IMG/VR virus record: IMGVR_UViG_3300028844_006278
DNA length: 64,000 bases
Direction: 5' to 3' (one strand)
From: a virus
Below, piece after piece: positions 1,912-54,253 of the stretch. The translations under genes were made by a program, and so were the position numbers. How positions within the stretch are numbered: position 1 is the first letter of the stretch; the number at the start of each line of letters is the position of its first letter. The notes under the pieces are model-generated. The model did not search any database. It worked only from the letters and a program-made list of their open reading frames with translations, and was not told where the DNA came from.

Positions 1912-2835
1912 CTATTCCGCGATGGGAGCTGCTGCTTCGTCGCCGGACTCTTCCAAGACTTCGGACATGACCTCTGCCAGCTCGTCGGGAGAAATCCCGG
2001 CTTCCTGCAGAGCCTGTACGTCTTCTACGGCCTGGGCGAGTTCGTCGGCAGTTACACCGGCTTCGTCGAGGGCATCAGCAAGTGCATCGATGGTCGCATC
2101 GCCGCCTTCTTCCTCGACAGCAGCACCGTCTTCCATTTCAGCCGCGGCTGCGGGAAGTGCGGCCTCTTCGGGGAGGATAGCTTCGGGGAATTCCATAGCG
2201 ACCTTGTCGAGGATGCCGGAGATGCCGCCGGCCTTTTCGATAAGGGCGGGGTCGATCTTGTTCTCAGCACAGGCTGCTTGGAGGTCCTGCTGGTCCTTGG
2301 CGCGCTTATGCATGCCGTAGAGATAGCCTTCGTAGTACTCTTGAGCAGCTTCGGCAGCCTGGGCGGCCATCTTATCGAGAGCGGTCGGAGCTTTAACGCT
2401 TTCGACAGGAGCCTCGGCAGACTCTGAGGCCGCCTTGAAGAGGACTTCGAGAATAGCGTTACCGAGGTTCTCGGCACGAGCTACTTTCTGCTCGCTGTTG
2501 ATCTCAGTCTTCTTGACGGGACCGATATTGCCTTTCTGCTCGACGGGATCGTCGGTAGTAAGGGTCTGCGTGCCCTGGGTCTCTGCGAACGTATTGCCGG
2601 CACCTTCCTTATTGTCGGGAGCGGAGCTGACGGTGGAGCCGGAGTCATTAGCAGCTTGTGTCTGCTCGACGCCGAGATTGGTCTGCGATTCAGCAGGGTC
2701 CTTCTCCTTCATCTGCTCTTGGGGCGTGGCGTCCTTCGTGTCTTTGAAGGATGCTTCTTTCTGTGCTTGGGCCCGGACGGGCTCCAAAAACGTGTTGATC
2801 AAGGACAGGCTGTCCTGAATGCTGCGATTACTCAT
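1912..2835 (-). CDS. Putative scaffolding protein
   Basis: Acidic, Ala/Glu-rich 307 aa between protease and MCP; motifs KEAS, KVAR, KAAS, KMAA, KRAK, KVAM. Confidence 0.55.
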   Translation of the reverse strand: MSNRSIQDSLSLINTFLEPVRAQAQKEASFKDTKDATPQEQMKEKDPAESQTNLGVEQTQAANDSGSTVSSAPDNKEGAGNTFAETQGTQTLTTDDPVEQKGNIGPVKKTEINSEQKVARAENLGNAILEVLFKAASESAEAPVESVKAPTALDKMAAQAAEAAQEYYEGYLYGMHKRAKDQQDLQAACAENKIDPALIEKAGGISGILDKVAMEFPEAILPEEAALPAAAAEMEDGAAVEEEGGDATIDALADALDEAGVTADELAQAVEDVQALQEAGISPDELAEVMSEVLEESGDEAAAPIAE

Positions 2836-2851: not shown

Positions 2852-5443
2852 TTAGGATTTGGCTTGGTTATGGACTACGACGCGGTGTGCGTACTTGTCT
2901 GCCCCGATGCCAGCCAGTAGTGAGATTTGATATTTCGCGTACTCATGCGACAAAACTCTTGACTCAGCACTCATTGTCGGCTCAACAAACATACTTGCCC
3001 GCTTGTGTTGCGGAGGACCGCCTTGGATAACTACGAGGGTTATCCTACGACGAACCGGGTCATCTTCAATTGAGAAACTTGGTTTTATATCTTTAGCCAA
3101 GTCCTCCAACTCTCTCCAATAGGTAGGAGAAAGCGGAGTATAACTTGAATCCGATATAGCTCCGGACGCGGAGCACGCCGCATCGGGGGCTCCACATTCG
3201 GCTTCAGTAAAGGCGCCCCGCATAGCTGGGCACATATTATCGATGCCTGGGATCTGATCTTTGTCCTTCTTAGTGACTATCTGGGCAAAGGATTCCGGAG
3301 GCAGTAAAATCTTATGATTAGCAAGGCAGCCGAGTACATCTTCCAGGGGGAATTCCTTTAGACGCTTAATGATATCCTCGGGAAGTTCTTCGTCCGGGAA
3401 GGCTAAGGATAGATCTGACTCTTCTGGGGTGAGTCCTTCTGCTAAGATCTTCTTTTCGATCTCTGCGAGCTTAGACAGAGCATGGGCGTTATTCTTCTCG
3501 GATTCTGAGCCGACCTTGCTGATAAGGGATAGCGGAAGATACATGTTAGTAGCGTCATCTGCCGTGGGGTCTATCCCGCCGTTGCTGGCTACCTTGGCTA
3601 GTGCGAACGCTATCCTATCGGCCGGGACACGGACTTTAGATATGTCGTGGAAATGGGGCTTATCATTGATCGCATAGACCTGGTGACCTTCTTTAGTGAT
3701 CCCCAGCTTATTATACTTGAGGTGCTCGCAGTAGTTAGCGCGTGTCTTTGCCTCGTTGCCACATACCGAGCAGATATCGAAAGGAACGCCGCAGTTGTGG
3801 GTAGATATGCCGTTCGCCAAGTAGCTGTGGTGTTCCGATTCGACCTCTAAGTTAAAGACGTCTGTGCTTCTAACAGTCACGTCAATGCTAGATACTGGGA
3901 CCAGCATATGATCTCCGACTATTCTCCTAGTGCGTCTAGTTTTGGCTGTTCCTTTAATCTCAGGAATCTTGGAGCTTAGGCCGTGTAGAGCCTCTGTAAG
4001 CACCCTGCTGCACCACAGCTGATATTCGTATGTGAAACCATCCTCTGTGTTAGCTGACGCGCTTGTGACGTGCTTGATATTGTTTATCGATACAGGATGT
4101 CCAAGCATAGGGAATAAAATCTGAAGCTGGATCGCCAGCTCTCTGCTGGAAGTGCTGAAGTAGGCATTGCCTCTAACGGAGTCAACATCTGATGAGGTAT
4201 AGTACCCGCCGTCTCCCTCATGATATCCTCCAAGCAGTTCCCACAAAGCTCCGTCTACCCACTGGAATACGGAAGGATGGATGTACTTATTTTTTGCCCC
4301 TGATCCAAATAGCATTAGTAGTGTTTTAGCCAGGTCTGCATCGAACAAGTTGATTGAGAAGGCTTGGTCGCAGTCTCTTCTTTTTGACTCTACTGGAGGG
4401 TTTCTAGTCCCTATCTCCCGGCATATGTCGTTTATGCGCTCTCTTAGTGTGTCTGACGCATGACACGTAAAGCATATGCCTGAGGGGGTGCCGTCCTTAT
4501 TGAACAGCACGTAGCCCTCAGCCAAGTAGTATCCGCAAAGCCGGGCAAAAGCTTCCGTTGCGTAAGCAGGATGAGCTACTGTTCTTGATAGGGGAGTCAG
4601 TAGGAGATCTCCCTCTAAGATTTCCGACGCCTCTAGCCACTCAGCGCGGTCAATTACATCTCCATCCAAGATAAATCTGCCGCGCTTAAAGGCCTTTTCC
4701 CTACGTACCACCAAGAACGGGTGATTGGGGGTGCATTCTAGGGGAAGTCCTCCTGTGGGCTTTATGGTGTAGATCTCGATGTCATCATACGATAATGAGC
4801 GAATAGCATCTACTTTTGAGCTCTCACCTGTGTGCAGTCGAACCTCGTCGCCTACGGCCACGTCTTGAATGGGAACTTGAGACATGTCGGACATTGTGAC
4901 TAGTGTTCCGGATAGGAAGCAGCCCATTGAAAATAAGACAGGAGTATCGGACGCCAGTTTATTCAGCGAGTCTGCCCATATATCGTTATCCAGCTTGACG
5001 ACTAGTTCCCCTCTATGCATTGCCGGGTTATAGGCCTCTAGCTCTATACTTCCTAACGACTTAGCTCCTTTGCGGGAATTGTGGTGCTCCCTATACACTC
5101 CGCCGTATTTGCTGAACGTGCTGTGATACTGTGTAAGGCCGCCGTCGATCTTCTTCTGATATTCCCTGCCTGTGCGGTGATGCTCTGGGACGGTGATAGT
5201 CCCTTCCTTCTCGTTGAAGAAGTCCGCATTGTTGTTAGGGCCGTAGAACTCTCCCGCACCTGTGGTAATGAGATGCACAAAGCTCTTACCCTTCTCCGGC
5301 TTGATGTCCATATGCATAACGTATTCCGACGCGGCGATCTTCGACATCTGCATCCTATCGACCCCTCGGCTGTGCACATCTATGAGATGGGCCGCCGGGT
5401 GGTCCTGGAACCAGCTTGTAGGGAGTATGCTCTTAGGGATCAT
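2852..5443 (-). CDS. Prohead (capsid maturation) protease with intein
   Basis: Spliced extein reads VYREHHN...ELVVKLD...FSMG|CGVPFDICSVCGNEAKTRANYCEHL...FHDISKVRVPADRIA, the His / SMG / Zn-knuckle / S-x-V-x-x-P-A pattern of assemblin/HK97-type head proteases; located in head module. Confidence 0.75.
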   Translation of the reverse strand: MIPKSILPTSWFQDHPAAHLIDVHSRGVDRMQMSKIAASEYVMHMDIKPEKGKSFVHLITTGAGEFYGPNNNADFFNEKEGTITVPEHHRTGREYQKKIDGGLTQYHSTFSKYGGVYREHHNSRKGAKSLGSIELEAYNPAMHRGELVVKLDNDIWADSLNKLASDTPVLFSMGCFLSGTLVTMSDMSQVPIQDVAVGDEVRLHTGESSKVDAIRSLSYDDIEIYTIKPTGGLPLECTPNHPFLVVRREKAFKRGRFILDGDVIDRAEWLEASEILEGDLLLTPLSRTVAHPAYATEAFARLCGYYLAEGYVLFNKDGTPSGICFTCHASDTLRERINDICREIGTRNPPVESKRRDCDQAFSINLFDADLAKTLLMLFGSGAKNKYIHPSVFQWVDGALWELLGGYHEGDGGYYTSSDVDSVRGNAYFSTSSRELAIQLQILFPMLGHPVSINNIKHVTSASANTEDGFTYEYQLWCSRVLTEALHGLSSKIPEIKGTAKTRRTRRIVGDHMLVPVSSIDVTVRSTDVFNLEVESEHHSYLANGISTHNCGVPFDICSVCGNEAKTRANYCEHLKYNKLGITKEGHQVYAINDKPHFHDISKVRVPADRIAFALAKVASNGGIDPTADDATNMYLPLSLISKVGSESEKNNAHALSKLAEIEKKILAEGLTPEESDLSLAFPDEELPEDIIKRLKEFPLEDVLGCLANHKILLPPESFAQIVTKKDKDQIPGIDNMCPAMRGAFTEAECGAPDAACSASGAISDSSYTPLSPTYWRELEDLAKDIKPSFSIEDDPVRRRITLVVIQGGPPQHKRASMFVEPTMSAESRVLSHEYAKYQISLLAGIGADKYAHRVVVHNQAKS
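3794..4921 (-). mobile_element. Intein with LAGLIDADG homing endonuclease (376 aa)
   Basis: Block A CFLSGTLVTMSD, block B LECTPNHPFL, LAGLIDADG-like RLCGYYLAEG and LLGGYHEGDG, end VFNLEVESEHHSYLANGISTHN followed by Cys+1. Confidence 0.93.
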
Positions 5444-13874: not shown

Positions 13875-14405
13875 TTAATTTGAAGTGTACCCCGATATAA
13901 ATGCGGAAACATTTATTGTCGGCATTTGAGAAGCGCACTTCCATTTTCTGCGTGCCTTACATATTCTCTTATCAGGAGTCTTTGAGCAATCTATATTATG
14001 CATCTTGCGCTGTCCATCGGATCTAGCGCAGAAGCTCTTTCTTCTCTTAGACGCCGCGCCCCCCTTTTTAACTTTACCTGTGACAGGCGCTTTTAAGTTA
14101 CTGCCTGGGTTTTCTCTCTCGTAAGACTTACGGCCAGCTTCGTTTAGGCCGCCTTCTCTATTCTGTCCCTTCTTACGAGTCCATGCAGGGCTCTTCTTTT
14201 TCTTATCCTTAGCCTCTTTGAATGCTGTCACGAACCTTACAAATTCGTTATCGCTTGAGGCTTTCTTCGCAAACTCCTCCAACTTATCTTCGGACATGCT
14301 GTTGGCGATCTCTTTTACCTTATCTGAAGCGTCCGGGCTCTCTCCTCGCTTATATGCTAGAGCCGCTCCAAAAAGTTTACGCTGATTTTCAGATTTAGCA
14401 GGCAT
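13875..14405 (-). CDS. Small basic protein, DUF3008-like plus DUF6321-like domains
   Basis: Start MPAKS at 14405 (GAGGAG upstream). MPAKSENQRKLFGAALAYKRGE..MSEDKLEEFA resembles DUF3008; SPAWTRKKGQNREGGLN..RRKSFCAR..KWKC resembles DUF6321 (from memory). Confidence 0.6.
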   Translation of the reverse strand: MPAKSENQRKLFGAALAYKRGESPDASDKVKEIANSMSEDKLEEFAKKASSDNEFVRFVTAFKEAKDKKKKSPAWTRKKGQNREGGLNEAGRKSYERENPGSNLKAPVTGKVKKGGAASKRRKSFCARSDGQRKMHNIDCSKTPDKRICKARRKWKCASQMPTINVSAFISGYTSN

Positions 14406-21853: not shown

Positions 21854-22196
21854 TGCTGCCTCCTTTCTTGGTCTCTTCGTCTATCTCTGCCTGTACCTTA
21901 CGGCGAGCCACGTCCGTCTCCAGCTTACGGAGATCGGAAAGCTCGATGGCTTTCTGGACTGTCTTGAAGTCCAGCTTTGACGGGGAGGTTATTCTAGAAT
22001 GTATGTGGCCTCCGAAGCCGCCTGCAATTGCCGGGAGGACCAGCATATAGGGTAGGAGCTCTCCGGCAGAGGTTATCCCGAGTTCCAGTGCGTTGCCTAC
22101 GACGTCTGCGAGTCCTGCTTTCTTCTCTATAGGGCTAGTCTGCGGCTCTATGTTGGCGTAGCCTCCGGAGAAGCCTAAGTATGTATCTGCGTTCAT
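21831..22196 (-). CDS. Hypothetical protein with hydrophobic segment
   Basis: Leader YLGFSGGYA...EKKAG, then LLPYMLVLPAIAGGFGG. Confidence 0.6.
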   Translation of the reverse strand: MNADTYLGFSGGYANIEPQTSPIEKKAGLADVVGNALELGITSAGELLPYMLVLPAIAGGFGGHIHSRITSPSKLDFKTVQKAIELSDLRKLETDVARRKVQAEIDEETKKGGSNARALRI

Positions 22197-22627
22197 TATT
22201 CCCCAAACTCCGTAAATATTCCTGTACTGATAAGTGCGCCGGCTATCGCTCCTGCTGCGCTTAAGCGCTTAGAAACTATAGTCGGTAATGAAAATAGTGA
22301 GGATGCGGCACGGCCGAAAAGATACCCTGCTCCTCCGCCAGCGCCAGCTGTGACCGCGCTTTGCATTAAGGATCCCCCGCTTGTAAAGCCGAACTTCTTC
22401 TTCTCAGCTTTCTCGAATATCGCAGAAGCTATATCCTTCTGGGTGATGGATAGGTATGGATCTCCTTTGATGATCTGTAGGCTCTCTGAGATCGGAACGC
22501 TCTTAGATTTAAGAGATATGTCCTCGTTCATCATGTACGAGGCATCCTTCTCCAGCAAGTGCATCCACGCCAGATCCCCGGCAGATGCGTATCCCTTCTT
22601 ATATCCCGCAGACTTGCTCATCGTCAT
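22196..22627 (-). CDS. Hypothetical glycine-zipper protein
   Basis: MSKSAGYKKGYA..EKDAS leader; AGAGGGAGYLFG and AAGAIAGALI. Confidence 0.6.
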   Translation of the reverse strand: MTMSKSAGYKKGYASAGDLAWMHLLEKDASYMMNEDISLKSKSVPISESLQIIKGDPYLSITQKDIASAIFEKAEKKKFGFTSGGSLMQSAVTAGAGGGAGYLFGRAASSLFSLPTIVSKRLSAAGAIAGALISTGIFTEFGE

Positions 22628-23141: not shown

Positions 23142-24041
23142 TTACGTAAGTCTAGTCGGATTCAGATTCTGCCCCAGCTGTCGGTACATGGACTCCGATA
23201 GGTAGCTGGAAGGCTGTCTAGGCGTCACCGCTTTAGGCGCCTGCTGAGGTGCTGCAGATTTAGTCTTAGACATCAGCAGCATCGCCAATGGAGTCAGTGC
23301 CGCGGCACCTGCTACCCATGGAGCGGCCTTCTGCACAGTTCCCGATACTTTAGATCGGACGTGCTGTAGGAGCTCCTTCTTCGCCCCCTCTCGGTAAGGA
23401 GAATGTTTGACATAGGTAGCAAGATGGTGCATCTTGTCGTAGTCTTTCGCCTTCCGCGCGTCGGCGAAAGCTGTCCTAAAGGCTGTCTCCTTAGCACCCT
23501 CCCCTATGGGCAGCCTATTGCCCAAGTACGCGGCTAATTGGCCAACCTCGTCTTGCTTGGCATGCGGGTATCTAGGTTGGATGTAGTTTTTGAATACGTG
23601 CTTGGCGTCCGCAGCATTGGGATTATATCTAATGTATTTTCCTCCTCCTGCCTCGCTATTATAGATTCTAGCCGGAGGAACGGCGTATCTGCCTCCACTA
23701 TTACCTACGGGCCCGTACGGGGAATACCTGTAGGTCGGAGTAGTGGCAGGGCGATCCTTTACCGTAGGGGCCGTAGCGTATTCCAACATAGATGAAATAG
23801 ATGGCCGGCCTTTTTCTTGGAGGAGGCCCGGGGGTGGTCCCGTGGGGCTCTGAAAGATAGGAGCCATTGCCTTGACCTCCGGAGAGAACTTGGGGGCGAA
23901 CTTCTCTATGTTCTCGTCCGTTAGCACCTCATTGTTGAACCCGCTTACTATACTCCCCATTATACCTTCCCCCGCTTCCTTAGAAAAAGAAGCAGAGTAT
24001 CCGGCTCTAACAGCTATATTGTAGTTGTGTCTATCTGTCAC
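23142..24041 (-). CDS. Hypothetical protein
   Basis: Leader AVRAGYSASFSKEAG; C-terminal hydrophobic WVAGAAALTPLAMLL. Confidence 0.55.
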   Translation of the reverse strand: MTDRHNYNIAVRAGYSASFSKEAGEGIMGSIVSGFNNEVLTDENIEKFAPKFSPEVKAMAPIFQSPTGPPPGLLQEKGRPSISSMLEYATAPTVKDRPATTPTYRYSPYGPVGNSGGRYAVPPARIYNSEAGGGKYIRYNPNAADAKHVFKNYIQPRYPHAKQDEVGQLAAYLGNRLPIGEGAKETAFRTAFADARKAKDYDKMHHLATYVKHSPYREGAKKELLQHVRSKVSGTVQKAAPWVAGAAALTPLAMLLMSKTKSAAPQQAPKAVTPRQPSSYLSESMYRQLGQNLNPTRLT

Positions 24042-24079: not shown

Positions 24080-25561
24080 TTACTCCCCTACAATGCTTGA
24101 GAGGAAGCCCTTGGCCATGTTACTGAGTTGTCTAGATTTGCTGTCTTGCTGTTTCTGTATCTCTTCCATTTTTTTGCGGCGGGCGGTGTTTAGCTCGTTT
24201 TTTGGCGCGTTCGCGTTGTACTCCTCTTTATCCTTAGCTGTAGGAGTTGGGTGCATTACTTTAGGCGAGGGAGGGGCGTTATACTCCTGTTTGGCCTGAC
24301 TGACCATAGCTCTGGCCGCCGCGACTGGGTTGTAACTACTGGCGTTGTACCCGGCGTCTAGTATCCTGTATAGTGCGGAGGACTGGTTAGGAGCCGGAGT
24401 AGGAGCCGGAGTAGTAGCGGGAGGCGCTGCCGGATGCGGCGGTGCTGGAGCCGGAGGGGCTGGCGCGGGAGTGGTAGCTGGAGGGGCTGGAGCCGGAGGG
24501 GCTGGCGCGGGAGTGGTAGCTGGAGGGGCTGGTGCAGGAGCTGGCTCTGGTGCGGGGGGAGGCGTTGGAGCCGGGGGCTCTGGTGCAGGAGGAGCAGCGG
24601 GAGCAGCAGCAGCGGGAGCAGCAGCAGGAGTATGAACAGGGACCATGTTTTTGTACCTGTTCTCTAAGTCCGTTAGCCTATCCTGGGCTTTAGCAATCTG
24701 CGCACCGTAGTCCGTGCCGGATGATTCGAGCAGTCCGGCGGGCAGGGCTGTTCCGGCTTCTCTGAGACTATCTAGTGATTTTAGGTGACCGATATTCGCC
24801 TGTTCTTTTGCTACAGCTGCACGGTTACGGGCGATATTATCTACATTCGCGGTGCTTAGCCCGGGGGCAGTTATATTGAGGAGTTCTTTCTGCTCCGCCA
24901 AGGTTCTTTTGAATACATCCTTAGTGTAGGCGGTATGCGCAGCCGGTAACTGATTCTTCATAAGATCAGTCTTCTGCTCACTGGACAAGGCGGATTGATT
25001 ATTAGCTAGCTCTAGGGCTGTACTGTACACGGCGGCCGGGGCTGTACTGATTGCCGCTATAGCCTCCGCATTCTTGTCCGGATCCTTCGCGAGAGCTTCT
25101 CGTACCTTGTCTAGATTGCGAGTAGCGATCGAGTCCTGTACGAACTTAACAGCTTCCGTTTTACCTACGCCGAAGAAGTCCATAACCGCGAAGGCAAGTG
25201 TACCGATAAGTGTGCCGGCCAGTGCGCCTTTACCGCCTCCTAAGAGACCTCCGATGACTCCTCCGACGCCGGCTCCGCCCAGGGCCCATCCTATCTTCTG
25301 CGCAGTCTTATCTGACGATACCTGATACATGGTGTCGGACATGATAAGCGAGCTCGCCCATTGCCGAATCTGAGACAGCTTTTCCGGAGTATTATAGCCT
25401 GCTTTGTATGCCGCTCGGGTGAATTCGTCTCCCTCGACTTGAGGCACCATGTCTGCAGGTACCGGTGCTGGAGGCGGCGGGACCGCCCCTGTATTTGCCC
25501 ATTTCTGGAAGAATTCCTCGGCCTCCTCGGCCGATAGTCTAGTATGAGGTAATTTGATCAT
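24080..25561 (-). CDS. Glycine-zipper protein with Pro/Ala/Thr-rich stalk
   Basis: WALGGAGVGGVIGGLLGGGKGALAGTLIG after DKTA; PAPPATTPAP repeats at about 24390-24630. Confidence 0.65.
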   Translation of the reverse strand: MIKLPHTRLSAEEAEEFFQKWANTGAVPPPPAPVPADMVPQVEGDEFTRAAYKAGYNTPEKLSQIRQWASSLIMSDTMYQVSSDKTAQKIGWALGGAGVGGVIGGLLGGGKGALAGTLIGTLAFAVMDFFGVGKTEAVKFVQDSIATRNLDKVREALAKDPDKNAEAIAAISTAPAAVYSTALELANNQSALSSEQKTDLMKNQLPAAHTAYTKDVFKRTLAEQKELLNITAPGLSTANVDNIARNRAAVAKEQANIGHLKSLDSLREAGTALPAGLLESSGTDYGAQIAKAQDRLTDLENRYKNMVPVHTPAAAPAAAAPAAPPAPEPPAPTPPPAPEPAPAPAPPATTPAPAPPAPAPPATTPAPAPPAPAPPHPAAPPATTPAPTPAPNQSSALYRILDAGYNASSYNPVAAARAMVSQAKQEYNAPPSPKVMHPTPTAKDKEEYNANAPKNELNTARRKKMEEIQKQQDSKSRQLSNMAKGFLSSIVGE

Positions 25562-27426
25562 TGTACAGGTACCTGTCCTTGTCGCGCGAGCTGCACACCT
25601 TGTGTAGCCGCTTGGTTTTCGAGTTCGCTGAGTCTAGCTTTGACTTGGGCATACAGTGCCTCGTCCTGGTGCTTAAGGTCGGATAGCGTCCTACGTCGTG
25701 TAAGCGGGTCCGCTACGATAAGCTCTTGGGCGATCTGGTCTGCGTTGGTCAATAGGTCGTCGATGGTTGCTCCAACCCCTGTAGCCCCTCCCGTTCCTGC
25801 GGAGGGAGGCATAGCGGCAGGAGGAGCTGCTGCTCCTGCGGGAGCACCGGCCTGCTGCTCTTGGGCAGCCATAGCGGCCTGCTCTTCCTGCATAAGGACC
25901 TGCTGTCCTGGGCCGGGCACGGTGACTGCTTGTACATTGGCCATCTGGTTGTCCATCTGGCGCTGGCGCTCTTCCATCTCTTCGGCAGCCGCTTCTTCCT
26001 GATCGAGCAGCTTCTTACGCTCTTGGTCGTAGTCTATGCCGATTGTCTGTAGAGCGGTGTCTTCAGATATCTTACCCGCGGCGGCGAGCTGCATCTTGAG
26101 ACTGCGGATCTCCGGATCCTCGTATAGGGATACTGGTTTGACGAATGCGCGGACAGTTTCCCAGCTTAGTAGATCGCCCTGCTTATTCACTACCCACGTT
26201 GCCCACTTGTTGAGCTGGTTAGCGAAATGCTGCCACGTCCGTTCGAACATCTTAAAGCCGATAAGAGGTCCTGCAGCTGCTTGGAATCCTGTAATGGATG
26301 ACTTGTAGAACTCAGGAGGAATACCCATAGAGTGTAGGAGCCGCATCTCGAAGTGCTCCATGATGTCTACAGGTATAAGGCTCTTTGCCTCGCCTCCCAG
26401 TGTCTGGTACTCCAAAGGATAGGGGAGGAAGTTCCAGTCCGTAGGATTTCTACGGTGGCGCTGGATCATACCCATTACAGATCCGACAAAGTCCTTCATA
26501 TTCATGTTGAGCATAGGATCCTTAGATCCGCCTGCGCTCGGAGGAGAGAACACGCGAAACGGCATAAGGTACTCTACCAGGATAGTCTCCACGTACTTAT
26601 CCAACATCGTCACTAAGACGGCCGTTTCAAAGTCCGCCATGAATGGGGGAAGTCCCCATCCCTTAAGATTAGGGATAGAGCAGGCAGCTACTGGGAAGGA
26701 CATGTGATATAGCTCGTCGTTCGCAAACTCGAACTCGCTTCCTTTACAGATAGCCTCTACGACCTCCCAAGGAGTGTCTTCAAGAAAGATGAGGTCTCCT
26801 CTAAGAACAGGGGCGGACAAAGAATCGTACTGTTTTAGGTCTATGCTGTACTTGGTGCGGCCTGACATCGGATGCTGATGGATGCGCATAAACTGCGGCG
26901 GCCAGCGGGTGATGACAGGCTTAGACTTCTCTTTAGGAAGCAGTGTATCTTCGTGCGGTAGCTGGCCCTTATAGGAGCAGGATGCGCACTCTCCGATGAA
27001 GCGGCAGTTCTCGAACTTAATCTTGTTTTTGAAATGCTTTAGAGGCGCACGCAGGCTACATCGGGGGCAGATAAGCTGGCGAAGGAACGGGCGGTGGATC
27101 GACGTGAATGAGTTCCCGAATGCCATGAAGTCGTCGCCTATTACAGCCAGCTCTTCGATCATGTCGAAGTTTTCGGCAATCGCATCGAGGTAGACCTTAC
27201 GGCTACGGAAGTCCAGATCGTCTCCCTCTACATCCAGCTCGGTCATAAAATACCGAACAGCCGAGGAGATAGACTGGGAGTACATGCCGTGATGCATCCA
27301 CAGTTCCTCTGCCCATGCAAAGGTCTCTCGGATAGTCTTAGGATAGACTCGCCGGGTCAGCTTATTAAAGGGGGACGTTACATCCTTGTCCCATCGAAGG
27401 CCGGCGTCTTGTATACCTGAAGACAT
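25558..27426 (-). CDS. Portal protein (putative) with Zn-ribbon insertion
   Basis: 622 aa; DFMAFGNSF, ELYHM..WGLPP, MPFRVF, LEYQTLGGE, LHSMGIPPEF are portal-like; CPRC...CASC insertion; acidic Gln-rich tail. Confidence 0.7.
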   Translation of the reverse strand: MSSGIQDAGLRWDKDVTSPFNKLTRRVYPKTIRETFAWAEELWMHHGMYSQSISSAVRYFMTELDVEGDDLDFRSRKVYLDAIAENFDMIEELAVIGDDFMAFGNSFTSIHRPFLRQLICPRCSLRAPLKHFKNKIKFENCRFIGECASCSYKGQLPHEDTLLPKEKSKPVITRWPPQFMRIHQHPMSGRTKYSIDLKQYDSLSAPVLRGDLIFLEDTPWEVVEAICKGSEFEFANDELYHMSFPVAACSIPNLKGWGLPPFMADFETAVLVTMLDKYVETILVEYLMPFRVFSPPSAGGSKDPMLNMNMKDFVGSVMGMIQRHRRNPTDWNFLPYPLEYQTLGGEAKSLIPVDIMEHFEMRLLHSMGIPPEFYKSSITGFQAAAGPLIGFKMFERTWQHFANQLNKWATWVVNKQGDLLSWETVRAFVKPVSLYEDPEIRSLKMQLAAAGKISEDTALQTIGIDYDQERKKLLDQEEAAAEEMEERQRQMDNQMANVQAVTVPGPGQQVLMQEEQAAMAAQEQQAGAPAGAAAPPAAMPPSAGTGGATGVGATIDDLLTNADQIAQELIVADPLTRRRTLSDLKHQDEALYAQVKARLSELENQAATQGVQLARQGQVPVQ

Positions 27427-29805: not shown

Positions 29806-30120
29806 TTAGATCTCGATAGAGTGATAAGGGATCTGTCTCTTCTTATCTCCTAAAGACTTCCGACCTTGCTGCCTCCGTAGACTGTCTCGGATCTGATCCG
29901 GTGTACGTTCACTCGTTGCGGCCGTCCCTCGCCGCATGCCTTGTCGGGCATCCTTCTGGCTCTTCTTGCGGCGGGCGATAATTCGTTTGAGCCTCTCTTC
30001 TTCTGGAATGTCGTGCATAGGGAATAGTTTACGGATATCGAAGATCGGATCGCTTGCTACTTTATCTAGAGACGCGGGGTTTTCTGCCGCGTATCCAGCA
30101 ATGAAGGCGTCTGTGTTCAT
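29806..30120 (-). CDS. Small basic protein with leader motif
   Basis: MNTDAFIAGY...DKVAS, then Arg/Lys-rich body. Confidence 0.55.
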   Translation of the reverse strand: MNTDAFIAGYAAENPASLDKVASDPIFDIRKLFPMHDIPEEERLKRIIARRKKSQKDARQGMRRGTAATSERTPDQIRDSLRRQQGRKSLGDKKRQIPYHSIEI

Positions 30121-48636: not shown

Positions 48637-48674
48637 AAAAAAAAAAACCTCCGCCCCTGGTGAGGAGGCGGAGG
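48637..48674 (-). terminator. Intrinsic terminator
   Basis: CCTCCGCC...GGCGGAGG stem followed by T11 on the minus strand. Confidence 0.85.
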
Positions 48675-48792
48675 TCAGGGAGCGGGATGGGCGGCCACAC
48701 AACCGAGCCATCCTCTGAGCGCAAGAGCTACCTGCGCATAACAACACACGCTATAGACTATAGCGGGGAATTCTAATTATGTGAGTGCGGTT

Positions 48793-48935: not shown

Positions 48936-49532
48936 TTACGCGGTGGCGATGCCTCGAAGCTTCTGCCGTTTAGCCAATGCCTGGATGAGAGCACCAGTGG
49001 CCGCGCCTGCGGCGCCCAGGCCTACGGCCTTACCCACGTTGATGCCTTCGCCCTTCGTAGCGTCGTGCGCTAAGGAGAGACCTACGCCGGCCGTACCGCC
49101 GATTGCTGCTCCGCCGCCAAGCTCGCCGACAATCTGTCGGATCTTATCGCGGTTAGAGGGTCCGGATGTCGAGGGTCCGGATGTCGAGGGGACTGGAACA
49201 CTGGCCGGGGCGTACTTAGCCATCTGCAGTCCATTCTTTGACTGGTCGATCTCTTTGACTTGCTGCTCGAGTTCCAGTTTTTTCTGGGGATCCCAGGGGT
49301 CGTCGGTTTCCTCGTCATCGTCGAATGGGTTCGGAGCTCCTAGGGACGTAAATAGTCTGGGCGCAGGGGGCGCAGGGGGCGCATGGGGCTCAGGGGGGCG
49401 CGAGGCGGCGGTCTCTGCGGCTTCGATCGCATCCAAAGAAATCTCATCAGCAGCAGCTGCCTGCTTGTGAAGGTAGCCGAGCTGGAAGCCCTGAACGGGA
49501 ATGCTGTCTGTCTGGTAAGTGGTATCGGGCAT
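48936..49532 (-). CDS. Glycine-zipper protein with leader motif
   Basis: GFQLGYLHKQAAA leader; GAAIGGTAGVGLSL...GAAGAATGALIQ. Confidence 0.6.
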   Translation of the reverse strand: MPDTTYQTDSIPVQGFQLGYLHKQAAAADEISLDAIEAAETAASRPPEPHAPPAPPAPRLFTSLGAPNPFDDDEETDDPWDPQKKLELEQQVKEIDQSKNGLQMAKYAPASVPVPSTSGPSTSGPSNRDKIRQIVGELGGGAAIGGTAGVGLSLAHDATKGEGINVGKAVGLGAAGAATGALIQALAKRQKLRGIATA

Positions 49533-49620
49533 TTGTGTTCTCCGTGTAGGTAAATGCTAAGTAAGTGGACGGTACTGTATAAATGAGCAGGAGTCAAGTA
49601 TAACCGCAGCTCGAGGTAGG

Positions 49621-50217
49621 TTAGGACATTCCGCCGAAGTCTATATATCCCCGCACTGCCGGCGGGAGGTTGGAAGCCGAGATGTTGCCTTCTCTGTCTT
49701 TAGTAGCGCCCTGGTATGCTAGCTGCAGTAGCGCCCCGGTCGGTGCTCCGATCAGAGCTGCTAGCAGGGCTCTCTTGACGTGGAGGCCCTTCTTAGAGGC
49801 TGCGTCTACCAACAAGGAGATCCCGGTACCCGCAGTAGCTCCTATTGCTGCTCCGGGAGCAAGGGACTTGGTCCGTGTTGTATACGTCTTCGGCTCGGGT
49901 GATCCCTTGCTGTCGTACCGCTGGATATCCGCATGTGCTCCAGCTATTACGGGCTTCTCTGCCAGATCTTCGTCCGGTTCGCTAAGCTGCGCGAGGGCTT
50001 GTAAAATCACAGGATCTCTTGGAGGCGGCCGCTGCTGCCATCCCGACCCTAAGAGATCTTCTGCGTCGGGCGTACGTGGGATCAGGTTGTCAGCTGTAAG
50101 CTCTCCTGGCGCTACGTTCGGCCGGGAATCGTTAAGAACAACTCCACTGCTGCTGGGGATTACGACGTCTTCGGCGGACTTGAGGAATTGGGATAGTATG
50201 TTCTTATACTTGCTCAT
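49621..50217 (-). CDS. Glycine-zipper protein (C-terminal domain paralogous to 48936..49532)
   Basis: FLKSAE leader; GAAIGATAGTGISL...LIGAPTGALLQ. Confidence 0.6.
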   Translation of the reverse strand: MSKYKNILSQFLKSAEDVVIPSSSGVVLNDSRPNVAPGELTADNLIPRTPDAEDLLGSGWQQRPPPRDPVILQALAQLSEPDEDLAEKPVIAGAHADIQRYDSKGSPEPKTYTTRTKSLAPGAAIGATAGTGISLLVDAASKKGLHVKRALLAALIGAPTGALLQLAYQGATKDREGNISASNLPPAVRGYIDFGGMS

Positions 50218-51935
50218 TATCTAGCGCTCCTGTAGGGCTTGGCCGGTATGCTTAGGTCTGTCTTCTGATGGAGTGTAATCGGATTGCCGACTAGGATATC
50301 GACTATGTTCTTAAGGAGGTGCTTGTTCCGCTCCTTCTCCCTATGTTGAACCCTGCTGATCGGAGAGTCATATTGGCTCCAGCCAGGCCCGAGGTCGTTG
50401 TCATATCCTCTGCTACCTGACTGTACGGCCTCAGGTACGTCAGTCTTGTAGCCCTTACCGCCCCTGTAGTTCTCGTAATCCCACCTATCGTTAACTTCTG
50501 CTATATCGCTACCTTTATCTCTAGTAGATCGGTATCCTGCTATAAAGCCCCCGGTGCCTTCCATGTACTCTTTATCGCCCTTTGTTTTGAATTGAGGCTC
50601 ATAAGTAATGGGTCCGCCTGGATATTCGTGCCTTCCCAAGAAGTCGATCCGGACTGACTGGTCCAGGTCTTCCTTATTCGGGACCTCGTCCGAATACTCC
50701 CACTTTTTAGGATCGTTGGGAGATACCTTGAAGTACTTATTCATTACATCGGCGTCGAGAGGAAGGTCGAAGTAGGCCTTCTGTGCTTGGCTCCTCATTT
50801 GAAGGTCATCAGACATTTTGCCTCCCCATAGGCGCTCGCCCTTTACGACCTTGAGTAGGGTCTTCTTGAGGCCTACGTCTTCTACGGACTTCTTAAAGTT
50901 TTCATTAATCTCCGAGGAGTCGTACCCTACCGGTCTCTTAAGAGAGACGAAAGGTCTGCCTAACGCTCTACGGATAGGACGCATTAGAGGGTTTCTTCGT
51001 AGAGCGTCTCCTACCTTACGGAGCCGAGGATCTTTCTCTATCTTACGGAGGATATCCCCAGCTTCCCCTGGATTAGCTCTGTAGTAGTCTATGCGCTTCT
51101 TTACTGCATCTCCTGCGGCTGCTCCGCCTATCCCTCCTGCGAGGCCTCCTATAGCCCCTGAAGCGACATAGTTCATCCAGTTGCCTTCGTACCCCAGCAT
51201 CTTAGATAGGACGAAATTAGACAGGGTTCCGGACCCTATGCCCAGGGCCGCACCTATGGCTGCCGATAGCTCTGTAGCGGAAGGTGCAGCCTCTTTGTCC
51301 AGGTATCCTTGCACGTACGCACTCTTATTCATGCTATGTATCCTCTTTAGATACTTGCCGGGTATAGTGCCGGACGGGGTTACGACAAATCCGTGCGGTA
51401 CGTCGGCTGCGTACATCCGACCCTCTGGGTCGTCGTAATGCTTCCATAGCTCCTTGGGCGGGGTGCGTAAGTAGGCCTTTATCTGATCCGCCGACAGCCT
51501 GCTGCGTCTCTTATCTTTATCCGCGTCCGACATGTTCTCCTTATACGGTATCAGCTCAGCGCCGTGTACGACAGTGTCCGGCACATCCTTCAAGAGGGAC
51601 CCTAAATCTACTTTGTACATATCGGACTGGAACTGCCTGGAGGGGTGCTTATCTGTTATCTTATCAGGGTCCGGCATTCCGAAGAATACACTGGGGCCTT
51701 CCTGTGACTTAGACCATGGGCGGTCCTTTAGCCTCTTCTTTACTGACCCCGCAAACTCCTCTGCAGTCATTGCGTGTCCTGTATTTCGCCTATTCTCTAT
51801 AACTGCGGCTAAGACTTCTGGATTCTCTATCAGGGCTTTAGCCGATAGGAGTCCGTGCTTCTTTATCAGCTCCTCGGACCCCGGGGGTGCTGCTGTATAC
51901 ACAACTAGGTCGTCAGACTTATTCATACCCTTCAT
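50217..51935 (-). CDS. Composite protein: N-terminal domain, internal leader, glycine zipper
   Basis: Internal MNKSAYVQGYLDKEAA at 51332 followed by GAALGIGSG...GAIGGLAGGIGGAAAG. Confidence 0.6.
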   Translation of the reverse strand: MKGMNKSDDLVVYTAAPPGSEELIKKHGLLSAKALIENPEVLAAVIENRRNTGHAMTAEEFAGSVKKRLKDRPWSKSQEGPSVFFGMPDPDKITDKHPSRQFQSDMYKVDLGSLLKDVPDTVVHGAELIPYKENMSDADKDKRRSRLSADQIKAYLRTPPKELWKHYDDPEGRMYAADVPHGFVVTPSGTIPGKYLKRIHSMNKSAYVQGYLDKEAAPSATELSAAIGAALGIGSGTLSNFVLSKMLGYEGNWMNYVASGAIGGLAGGIGGAAAGDAVKKRIDYYRANPGEAGDILRKIEKDPRLRKVGDALRRNPLMRPIRRALGRPFVSLKRPVGYDSSEINENFKKSVEDVGLKKTLLKVVKGERLWGGKMSDDLQMRSQAQKAYFDLPLDADVMNKYFKVSPNDPKKWEYSDEVPNKEDLDQSVRIDFLGRHEYPGGPITYEPQFKTKGDKEYMEGTGGFIAGYRSTRDKGSDIAEVNDRWDYENYRGGKGYKTDVPEAVQSGSRGYDNDLGPGWSQYDSPISRVQHREKERNKHLLKNIVDILVGNPITLHQKTDLSIPAKPYRSAR

Positions 51936-52588
51936 CCTCTGAATAATTTTTGAGTAACCGCTACCGGAGTTAAAAGTAAAAATTTGTTATCCGGCATCAA
52001 CTCCATCCACTTTTGGTCTAGCGCAAGTCCTCGTAAATGGCGTATGTGTATAGGGAGATGTCTGCTCGTCCGCGAACGCACTACTGTCTTGATAAGTTGA
52101 AGAGACTCTACAAACTTGTCTTTAAGTTTAGAAATAAATGAGTCCCTTACAAGGTAAGCGTGCGATTGATAACATCTTGTTACTTGTACGCAGTCTTCAT
52201 CCCGTCTAGTAAAAGCCGGAAGGGCGCCTCCTAGTAACATAACATCCCAGTCTGGGTGATTGGCGTGAACTCGTGTTGCTTGTTCAAGCGTTTTACGGGG
52301 ATGGTGAAAATTAGCATCGTCCTCTAGGATACAGACGTACTTTGGAACAGGCGTTTGCTGTAGAGCTAATGCAAGGATCTCTATGTGCGCTTGGGCAACC
52401 CAGTAGCTACCTCGAGTCTCTCCTCTGGTTGCCGGATGCCTACATGCGTTGATCCCTAGGTTATTTATCTGGGAAATAATGTGCTCTTCCCGTTCCGGCT
52501 GACTATCCAGGTTTATATACCGGGTGTATTCGAAGAGGTCGTCGACGCTAGCGGCTGTTTCCTTTGGCTCTGTACTAGGCGTAGTCAT
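51932..52588 (-). CDS. GT25 family glycosyltransferase
   Basis: YINLD..PER, AHIEIL, CILEDDA, WDVMLLG, SHAYLV, ALDQKW. Confidence 0.85.
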   Translation of the reverse strand: MTTPSTEPKETAASVDDLFEYTRYINLDSQPEREEHIISQINNLGINACRHPATRGETRGSYWVAQAHIEILALALQQTPVPKYVCILEDDANFHHPRKTLEQATRVHANHPDWDVMLLGGALPAFTRRDEDCVQVTRCYQSHAYLVRDSFISKLKDKFVESLQLIKTVVRSRTSRHLPIHIRHLRGLALDQKWMELMPDNKFLLLTPVAVTQKLFRG

Positions 52589-52776
52589 CGATCCTCTGTA
52601 GAGTAGTCTAGGCCGTAGTCGTAGCTCTGCGGCGAATCGTTCTTTGGGGCTGTGTCGTTTAGGGATCCTATAAGAGCAAAGGCTCCGATAAGCACCGTAA
52701 AGAACAGAATAATCGCTGCCCCTAGTGCAACAACAGAGCCGAGCTCTTGCTCGTATGCATCGTCGTCTTCGTACAT
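52585..52776 (-). CDS. Small membrane protein
   Basis: One TM helix; ATGA overlap with the next gene. Confidence 0.5.
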   Translation of the reverse strand: MYEDDDAYEQELGSVVALGAAIILFFTVLIGAFALIGSLNDTAPKNDSPQSYDYGLDYSTEDR

Positions 52777-52780
52777 CGTT

Positions 52781-54253
52781 CTACGCTATGTCGTGTGTCT
52801 TTCTTTTGAACTGCTCTTGCTGGGCTACGGCCTTGGCCCGTATTGCCCGCCCTAAGTTGAACTGCTTTTGCTGGGCTACGGCCTTGGCCCGTATCGCCCG
52901 CCCTAAGTACGCGAGCTGCTTTACCCGGGGATCGTCCTTAGATATTCTCCCGGCCTTGTATGCCTTCTCTGCCTTTCCTCTGAGCCGCTTGTAGTCTGCG
53001 ACGAGCGTTCCGACATCTTTCTGGGATACGTACCTATTGATTTTGGCTATAGCTGCATGGGTCTCTACGTTCCTTGCCCGATCGGAGGCCTTCTGCACAT
53101 CGAGCTGCTGCTTTGCCTTGGCCTGCTGCCCTCCCTCATAGGCCTCCAGTCCGTGGCGCGTCATAAGGGATTGGATGCGAGGATCGTTAGGATTCTTATT
53201 ATACAAAGACCTTACTGCGTTCTTCTGGTCAGCTGTTAGCAGTGTGTGCTTAGCGACGGGGTTGACTTCCTGTATGCCTCTGGATTTCAGTGTATCTTTT
53301 ATACCTCCCCTCGTCTGCCCTGTATTGGATAGACTGAACAGGGCCTTGCGCTGATCGGGAGTGAGAGCTCGTTCATTGTCGGACAAGCCGAGATTCTTTC
53401 TCACCCTATCTAGACCTGGACTGGTGTGTCCTGTGTCCGTTTTGCCGTACATAGCGATCTGGTCTGCCCTGGGCGTTATCTCCCATCTACTGCCGGCTCT
53501 GTCGTTGATTGTGGACTGAACCACGGGCTTCAGACGCTCGCCTCCTGTCTGCTTATTCAAGGGCGCTACGCCCTTTTTCCTGTTGGTCACACCCATTACT
53601 CCGTACGGAGTGCGGACCATGGTATTTGGGACGAACCTTTGTCTCTCCTGTCGGTGCTTACTCTCTTGATCCCTTAGCTTGGTGATATAGGAAGGGGTCC
53701 GCCTCAGTGCATTAGATGTGTCGAGGCCTTTGTGCGCTCCGTCGAACACATCTGAGCCCTTACTTCGTGTAGACCTCTTAGCCATATCCCATGAACTAGT
53801 GCCGAAGTAGCCTTCTTTGCTTAGGTAGCCCTGCATGTATGCTTGCTTATGCGCTAGTACTTGAGGGACCTCCTCAGATGCTGCGGTCTTCTGTATCTCT
53901 GGAGATGCTTCGGGGAGAGGGGTCTCAGCCGATTTCTGCTGCTCCCATTCCTTTATCTTCTCAGCCAACCATAGGTTCTCCCGCTTCTGGAGTATGGAGT
54001 TGATATCCCGCCACCGCCATCTTTTCTGGGGGTAGTTATCAGCCATGTACTTCATGAGCAGGGCTCTTTCCTGCTCTCTTTCGCGCCAGTTCTTCTTGGG
54101 TGGTGTGAACCCCTCGGGAAGCTCTAGGGGATCCTCCGGCGGGAGCAGGCTCCAGGCCGTCTTCTGTATTGCGGTATTGAGTGCGGGAGTCATGACGTAG
54201 TGCGCCTCTGTGGGAGTGCTTAGGTAGCCCTGCATGTATGCTTGCTTATTCAC
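52781..54253 (-). CDS. Basic protein with duplicated leader motif
   Basis: KQAYMQGYLS twice, QKTA twice; C-terminal LGRAIRAKAVAQQ twice (51-bp tandem duplication near 52806-52908). Confidence 0.65.
   Translation of the reverse strand: MNKQAYMQGYLSTPTEAHYVMTPALNTAIQKTAWSLLPPEDPLELPEGFTPPKKNWREREQERALLMKYMADNYPQKRWRWRDINSILQKRENLWLAEKIKEWEQQKSAETPLPEASPEIQKTAASEEVPQVLAHKQAYMQGYLSKEGYFGTSSWDMAKRSTRSKGSDVFDGAHKGLDTSNALRRTPSYITKLRDQESKHRQERQRFVPNTMVRTPYGVMGVTNRKKGVAPLNKQTGGERLKPVVQSTINDRAGSRWEITPRADQIAMYGKTDTGHTSPGLDRVRKNLGLSDNERALTPDQRKALFSLSNTGQTRGGIKDTLKSRGIQEVNPVAKHTLLTADQKNAVRSLYNKNPNDPRIQSLMTRHGLEAYEGGQQAKAKQQLDVQKASDRARNVETHAAIAKINRYVSQKDVGTLVADYKRLRGKAEKAYKAGRISKDDPRVKQLAYLGRAIRAKAVAQQKQFNLGRAIRAKAVAQQEQFKRKTHDIA
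53818..54249. repeat. 33-bp perfect direct repeat encoding KQAYMQGYLS
   Basis: tgcttaggtagccctgcatgtatgcttgcttat at 53818-53850 and 54217-54249. Confidence 0.95.

Follow-up and report, generated by a model that had tools for sequence, protein, structure and literature searches.

A recurrent fifteen-residue leader on unrelated proteins of a marine phage group: a candidate label for packaging into the head

Why would phage genes that share little else start with the same short peptide? The question is raised by positions 48936 to 54253 of a 64,000-nucleotide stretch of IMG/VR virus record IMGVR_UViG_3300028844_006278, hereafter called the window. The source is an uncultured, marine, 165-kb phage, and the window corresponds to bases 91638-155637 of the 164,893-bp record, which is classed with direct terminal repeats. 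A first-pass annotation had remarked on an aromatic-x-x-G-Y segment followed by K-x-A in several genes and had read it as a modular address label that recruits new proteins into the head. We find that the full unit comprises 15 residues, M-N-K-x-A-[FY]-h-x-G-Y-[LM]-x-K-x-A (h, hydrophobic), and that it is a genuine N-terminal peptide which, in this phage and its closest relatives, precedes dozens of small proteins that are otherwise unrelated. Selection acts on the peptide itself, and the genes that carry it lie in structural operons. We infer that it docks its carriers on the assembling head and is then cleaved off. Our preferred reading is that the leader would be an address label in two parts, a docking helix and a cut site, resembling the capsid-targeting sequence (CTS) of phage T4; we give it a probability of about 0.5.

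The existence of the unit does not depend on the window. A DNA pattern for its first ten residues gave 25 matches in IMG/VR, nearly all of them true gene starts and five of them within a single 13-kb stretch. Among metagenomic open reading frames (ORFs) that start with this pattern, 40 of 85 distinct ones also have [LM] at position 11, K at position 13 and [AGS] at position 15, three positions that lie outside the search pattern; about one such ORF would be expected by chance. Conservation stops at Ala15 in these ORFs. Very clean copies are found at gene starts in a relative whose portal is 48% identical (L002), where the gene after the portal carries two of them in tandem. We also searched five related phage records with the six-residue core, irrespective of its position and with the reversed pattern as a control. 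This yielded 21 distinct matches on the coding strand only, against 0-1 per record for the controls, and in 19 of the 21 the core lies 4-12 residues after the start codon. The leader is thus a short peptide at the extreme N-terminus, as in the T4-type CTS system. The sub-clade that bears it is marked by a portal identity of roughly 33% or more. Synonymous codons are mixed in the leaders, even within a single genome: AAT and AAC occur in a ratio of 17:16, and the GGN and GCN boxes are each represented by all four codons. Such mixing points to selection on the peptide. A signal peptide of the Sec, Tat or lipoprotein type was considered and discarded, as the 15 residues include Lys and usually Glu or Gln and have no hydrophobic run.

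In the window, leaders and leader-like peptides are found at the following places.

54209..54253, minus strand: tag copy 1 of the 490-amino-acid (aa) protein (residues 1-15), with an intact core and no K-x-A at positions 13-15
53810..53854, minus strand: tag copy 2 of the 490-aa protein (residues 134-148), ending in K-E-G, at the point where the homologs start
51288..51332, minus strand: internal leader of the 572-aa protein (residues 202-216), with the full 15-residue consensus
49458..49502, minus strand: leader-like peptide at residues 11-25 of a Gly-zipper protein of 198 aa (gene 48936-49532), 12.5 bits, rank 3 in the proteome
30052..30120, minus strand: N-terminal leader of a 104-aa basic protein, with an intact core and K-x-A 8 residues further on
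22113..22196, minus strand: decayed leader of a 121-aa Gly-zipper protein, with canonical or split leaders in the orthologs of L032, L033, L039 and L043
22535..22627, minus strand: weak, unscored leader-like start of a 143-aa protein, whose L002 ortholog makes up the second half of a fusion protein of 325 aa, with a partial leader before it
23970..24041, minus strand: weak leader-like start of a 299-aa protein, with G-Y and K-E-A in a different register; unsupported
13878..13916, minus strand: core copy at the C-terminus of a 182-aa basic protein, matched in synteny by the core at the C-terminus of a Nudix protein in the relative G001
2296..2340, minus strand: internal tag-like motif of a 307-aa scaffold-like protein, semi-conserved in relatives

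Each motif quoted by the first-pass annotation was found where it had been placed. A weight matrix derived from leaders of other genomes was run over the proteome. Four contiguous matches reach at least 8 bits (0.32 expected), all of them within 48936-54253, and three reach at least 12 bits (0.05 expected). Six cores have an h-x-K-x-[AGS] within the next 22 residues, whereas 0.5 such cases would be expected and none of 300 shuffles reached six. The core as such has five matches in this genome, all on the coding strand. The main copies, at 54253, 53854 and 51332, have good motif scores. As for the looser versions, the initial proposal holds in part: those at 49502 and 30120 and the one in the scaffold score well, but those at 22627, 22196 and 24041 do not score. 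The copy at 22196 nevertheless has the backing of orthologs with canonical leaders, and that at 22627 has a weaker one, its ortholog being preceded by a partial, degraded leader; the copy at 24041 has neither a score nor ortholog backing. The motif attributed to the scaffold is present and is semi-conserved in relatives; the scaffold might conceivably serve as a homotypic partner through this G-Y motif of its own.

Two observations belong beside this list. The Nudix hydrolase of G001 (L034:11014-11664, minus strand) and the unrelated 182-aa protein of the window both end with the tag core, and the same Pro-rich gene lies immediately downstream of each; in G001, the Nudix and Pro-rich ORFs share a frame and are one stop codon apart. 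In the gene of the 198-aa protein, a perfect 15-nt tandem repeat (49156-49185) doubles a five-residue Pro/Ser/Thr/Gly unit.

What follows the leader varies widely. The post-leader parts form about 32 BLAST groups among 37 distinct proteins; the same peptide is found on otherwise unrelated proteins, again as in the T4-type CTS system. The earlier remark that the sequences after the tag are mostly unrelated is borne out, a shared C-terminal domain being present only in the genes at 48936 and 49621. Pfam matches in the cargo are limited to LysM, DUF5661, DUF6496, a HiPIP-like match and Gly-zippers, and Pfam and PHROGs return nothing for most tagged proteins. Most of the proteins are net basic, and Gly-zipper patterns occur in 24 of 54 cargo proteins. 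That abundance of Gly-zippers, together with one cargo that resembles an ADP-ribosyltransferase (ART), would suit a leader acting as a pro-sequence that keeps its cargo harmless or soluble, its helix masking membrane-active Gly-zipper or enzyme cargo inside the producing cell until removal in the head. However, the cargo is too diverse for a single ten-residue helix, and the tag is also found at C-termini and in tandem. Moreover, in the AlphaFold2 (AF2) model, leader residues 3-14 form a helix that does not pack against the cargo, at a predicted local distance difference test score (pLDDT) below 50. A masking function therefore appears distinctly improbable to us.

If the label is portable, gene borders might be expected to shift around it, and two tagged genes of the region bear on this point. 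In the 572-aa protein, the leader separates two parts.

51333..51935, minus strand: N-domain of the 572-aa protein (residues 1-201), ART-like fold, without the K-x-A peptide of its stand-alone relatives
50217..51287, minus strand: cargo portion of the same protein, comprising a Gly-zipper segment and a conserved domain with no recognised fold

The copy at 51332, which had been reported as lying in the middle of the ORF, is real and corresponds to the former N-terminus of a stand-alone gene: residues 202-572 are encoded separately in relatives, by genes that start with the leader (P0082, P0008, P0116, P0111, P0030). To judge from these relatives, the 572-aa protein is a fusion, in which an ART-like domain has been placed before a leader-bearing gene. 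The AF2 model of the N-domain (pLDDT 93.5) matches DarT with Z scores of 7.4-7.8 (root-mean-square deviation 3.5-4.6 over 134-153 residues) and Tpt1 with a Z score of 6.5. Nearly all 50 rows of its structural match list are ART-fold proteins, with middling Z scores below 8, and Foldseek gives a probability of 0.96 with an E-value of only 0.02. Since these scores are middling, we term the domain ART-like. Its invariant columns are H97, E127, Y175 and H181. For the cargo part, fold searches gave no clear match in a viral library (E >0.8) or in the PDB (Z at most 4.0).

Residues 6-197 of the fusion belong to a widespread domain of about 190 residues (P0009-P0155), for which there is no Pfam model and which occurs alone or within proteins of 1000-2500 residues. 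These large proteins also carry Nudix, pyrophosphatase, P-loop kinase, HD and DNA ligase domains and, once, an RNA polymerase beta' chain; they look like head-cargo polyproteins. Many stand-alone relatives of the N-domain begin with a peptide ending in h-x-K-x-A, with the site starting at residues 9-14 in about 10 of 23. The copy in the window has no such initial peptide and is attached instead to the leader of its neighbour. In P0108, a different module is joined to the 572-aa cargo family through a plain K-x-A site, and two adjoining genes of the window are a single fused gene in L002. Taken together, these comparisons indicate that gene borders in the tag system move, and that they do so at the leader, by fusions, fissions and insertions. 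We also noted a D-I-L-L-G-G-R-[FY]-K-N-K-R module (L046, L118, L130, L038, P0108), one form of which is a leader-tagged cargo; its other forms stand behind N-terminal extensions of 80-174 residues or are fused to the 572-aa cargo family.

The 490-aa gene has undergone a different rearrangement, an insertion between two copies of a repeat.

52781..54253, minus strand: 490-aa basic cargo gene, with two tag copies and a 133-residue insertion
54217..54249, no strand assigned: 33-bp perfect direct repeat, copy A, paired with copy B
53818..53850, no strand assigned: 33-bp perfect direct repeat, copy B, at a spacing of 399 nt from copy A, reading frame kept

The GTG start of this gene lies one base past the stop codon of the gene for a 795-aa virion protein. 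The duplication that the first reading had singled out is indeed perfect, 53818-53850 being identical to 54217-54249. In contigs of two marine studies, the repeat has about twice the depth of its flanks and the 426-nt middle piece has flank depth, and an independent run bridges the internal repeat copy; as contig depths and bridging run agree, the assembly of the repeat is supported. No deletion variant arising from the repeat was seen in the contigs, which cannot reveal rare variants. The 133-residue block is flanked on either side by a copy of the first eleven leader codons (490 - 133 = 357) and contains two K-x-A sites. In the homologs P0002-P0004, which have 351-361 aa, the leader runs directly into the mature part without the block. 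Searched for as a separate short protein, the block gave nothing. At the 3' end of the gene, a 51-nt tandem duplication (52806-52907, 96% identical) doubles a 17-residue basic segment that is present as a single copy in four of four homologs. The 490-aa and 572-aa proteins (52781-54253 and 50217-51935) share the segment R-S-T-R-[SD]-K-G-S-D-[VI], which is kept in both homolog families, although the BLAST match between them is not significant.

A perfect 33-bp repeat and rearrangements that occur at the leader could suggest that the conserved element is DNA or RNA, a recombination site or a translation start enhancer, instead of a peptide; the A-rich codons 2-3 of M-N-K are also typical of strong starts. 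Nevertheless, synonymous sites vary freely, and a third copy of the repeat in the window (51296-51328, in the 572-aa gene) has kept the peptide at 70% DNA identity. We disfavour a nucleic-acid element, which we regard as extremely improbable.

Are the tagged genes where head proteins would be expected? Nearly all genes of the window are on the minus strand, and the following features frame the tagged ones.

25558..27426, minus strand: portal protein; in relatives, the genes directly downstream all bear the leader
2852..5443, minus strand: head-maturation protease with intein domains, 30-32% identical to Arash gp222
48646..48676, minus strand: strong intrinsic terminator, a 12-bp stem followed by T10, closing the operon 57240-48936

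In the window, tagged genes form an operon that runs from 57240 to 48936, is headed by virion proteins and ends with the strong terminator; in relatives, tagged genes come after the portal gene. The portal is 24-26% identical to those of Salmonella phage Arash and Vibrio phages D69, D148 and D181. The window also encodes scaffold-like proteins (1912-2835 and 1373-1894) and a two-chain RNA polymerase, and the capsid gene lies just beyond its left edge (L164:6320-7300). Homologous RNA polymerase chains are encoded beside tagged genes, and in Arash virions such chains are the most abundant proteins (PMC10585845), which argues that this phage group packs much protein with its DNA. Between two tagged genes, at 51932-52776, we found a GT25-like glycosyltransferase gene and a gene for a 63-aa membrane protein, the start and stop codons of which overlap.

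The protease at 2852-5443 is presumably the enzyme that acts on K-x-A sites. Leader positions 11-15 fit hydrophobic-x-K-x-A, which, with a small or acidic residue after it, is the putative site motif of the head protease. Dozens of h-x-K-x-A sites occur in the scaffold-like proteins, the protease and the capsid protein, mostly without an upstream G-Y, and in the capsid protein, K26 and A28 hardly vary across 28 relatives. By its motif, which is found in proteins of the head module and conserved in relatives, the end of the leader is a candidate Lys-x-Ala substrate of the head protease. Conversely, cores without K-x-A are represented by the first copy of tandem pairs, by copy 1 of the 490-aa protein and by the two syntenic C-terminal copies. 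As most K-x-A sites lack G-Y and some cores lack K-x-A, the G-Y half is a separate element. On the distribution among these genomes, the K-x-A half appears to be general and the G-Y half specific to one sub-clade.

The close association of the two halves could also mean that the helix extends protease recognition and nothing more, i.e. that G-Y is an exosite that speeds or orders the cuts of the head protease, with entry into the prohead achieved by other means. The canonical form does join the core directly to K-x-A, and in this genome a Tyr precedes the capsid protein's own site at the corresponding position. Nevertheless, an exosite is difficult to reconcile with the many K-x-A sites that have no G-Y and with the cores that no K-x-A follows; in addition, the core is nearly always at the extreme N-terminus rather than at the numerous internal sites. 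This possibility seems to us rather unlikely. Alternatively, the invariant G-Y might mark proteins for a modifying enzyme, for instance for glycosylation by one of the phage's many glycosyltransferases. The GT25-like gene lies between two tagged genes and, in G001, glycosyltransferase-like genes adjoin a tagged gene; yet most tagged clusters in relatives (L033, L035, L003) have no glycosyltransferase nearby, and the adjoining cut site suggests that the peptide is discarded. We consider a modification signal very unlikely.

On our preferred reading, the leader would be a propeptide in two parts, borne by proteins that enter the head and are probably ejected with the DNA. Its first half, A-[FY]-h-x-G-Y, would form a short amphipathic helix with an aromatic face; a helical wheel would group F6, h7, Y10 and [LM]11 on one side, with A5 and G9 beside them. 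This helix might dock the precursor on the core of the assembling prohead. The second half, h-x-K-x-A, would be where the head-maturation protease of the phage itself cuts, and the cut would then free the cargo. A label of this kind might work in front of, in the middle of or behind a protein. As it would be self-contained and removed, any protein joined to it would be loaded, and genes could therefore fuse, split or gain inserts at the label and remain functional. Both rearrangements in 50217-54253 would be changes of this type. A bolder version holds that the label is standardised throughout the clade and effective in any position, with a receptor and a protease of its own, and that an injected arsenal of ADP-ribosyltransferase, Nudix and LysM kinds evolves by module shuffling. 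This we put forward tentatively, with the odds somewhat against it. The interpretation first proposed for the window is upheld in part: the peptide is portable, precedes unrelated cargo, is found in structural operons and next to portal genes, and is the place where rearrangements occur, whereas targeting to the capsid and removal of the tag are putative and some of the looser versions are weak.

Several observations weigh against the address-label reading. The copies in this genome are mostly degenerate or internal. The wider K-x-A clade does without G-Y, and the core has no matches in the genomes of the cultured relatives Arash and Vibrio phage D69. The 490-aa and related families include 42 ORFs that have no leader, and these show that cargo is joined also through plain K-x-A, P0108 being an example; as such junctions occur, G-Y is not obligatory for whatever loads the cargo. 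At their variable positions, leaders of the same genome are more alike than leaders of different genomes (0.26 versus 0.18; none of 500 permutations reached this), as might be found if each had adapted to a receptor. However, the likeness is modest and codon identity is slightly higher as well, and for this reason it is compatible with common descent as well as with adaptation to a receptor.

The leader appears confined in its distribution. Searches by tblastn with the tagged proteins and a 21-residue leader gave no match among deposited phages, and the full leader pattern is absent from 185,579 prokaryote genomes. We found no paper describing the motif, which is weak evidence of absence as the literature searches were based on topics and not on the motif.

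Two further observations concern other parts of the record. At either end (G000 bases 1-100 and 164794-164893), it is built of runs of one 9-mer type, GCGGCGGAC-C-N. At the left edge of the window, a long plus-strand ORF (18-1346) is probably spurious, since the capsid gene and a gene for a 222-aa protein occupy the same place on the minus strand.

To our knowledge, how a phage chooses the proteins that it packs along with its DNA is understood in detail only for T4, plus one protein of P1. The leader would be a second, unrelated and unusually uniform label, in a large, mostly marine, uncultured phage group whose capsid protein family has >970 members at E <1e-10. If it does have its own receptor and protease, it would represent a second independent natural system that packs chosen proteins into a phage head. 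With it, the proteins that such phages probably inject could be catalogued in metagenomes from sequence alone, and it would explain why their genes fuse and split so freely. As a short peptide with a matching protease site, it is also a candidate packaging tag, with the practical limit that no cultured phage bearing it is known.

How does the leader compare with known systems? Like the cargo peptides of encapsulins (PMC10960027, PMC8229669), it is a short conserved peptide, and theirs suffices to load unrelated cargo into a shell of HK97 fold and can be transplanted. However, encapsulin peptides are usually C-terminal, are not cleaved, bind the shell protein directly and are cellular, not viral. 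We rejected a loading peptide of that type, given that the leader is N-terminal with an adjoining cut site and that only two C-terminal copies, syntenic with each other, were found. The signal of P1 DarB (PMC9024508) is N-terminal too, has at most 30 residues, and brings a large enzyme as well as a reporter into the head, but it serves one protein only, belongs to no known family of shared motifs and has no tie to a cleavage code. The phiKZ and SPN3US phages, whose head and ejection proteins have propeptides cut by gp175 and gp245 (PMC10052503, PMC5694885), are likewise large, have a virion RNA polymerase and process many head-internal proteins at a short motif. In contrast with the leader, that motif is [S/A/G]-x-E, most of these propeptides are long (111-254 residues), and a leader common to the processed proteins has not been reported.

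The closest parallel is with T4, and the analogy drawn at first reading proves apt, down to the ADP-ribosyltransferase-like cargo. The T4 CTS is described on IPI, IPII, IPIII and Alt and is cut by the prohead protease gp21 (PMC9026906, PMC3012670; Mullaney and Black 1996 as cited there); targeting and processing are separate parts of a 10-residue N-terminal tag (PMC9026906). In both systems, a short N-terminal peptide (10-19 residues in T4, 15 here) precedes unrelated, mostly basic proteins, which in T4 are internal; its front part serves targeting and its end is a protease site at which it is removed after assembly, all of which is putative for the leader. The T4 cargo includes the ADP-ribosyltransferase Alt, and the cargo here a domain of ART-like fold; in both systems the cargo set turns over fast between related phages. 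They differ in that function is established for T4 and inferred for the leader, and in that the present motif varies far less from gene to gene and genome to genome and also occurs in internal, tandem and C-terminal positions. The two peptides have no sequence likeness, and the site is h-x-K-x-A here as opposed to L/I-x-E in T4. As sequence, site and protease specificity all differ, the leader would be an analogue of the T4 CTS and not its homologue.

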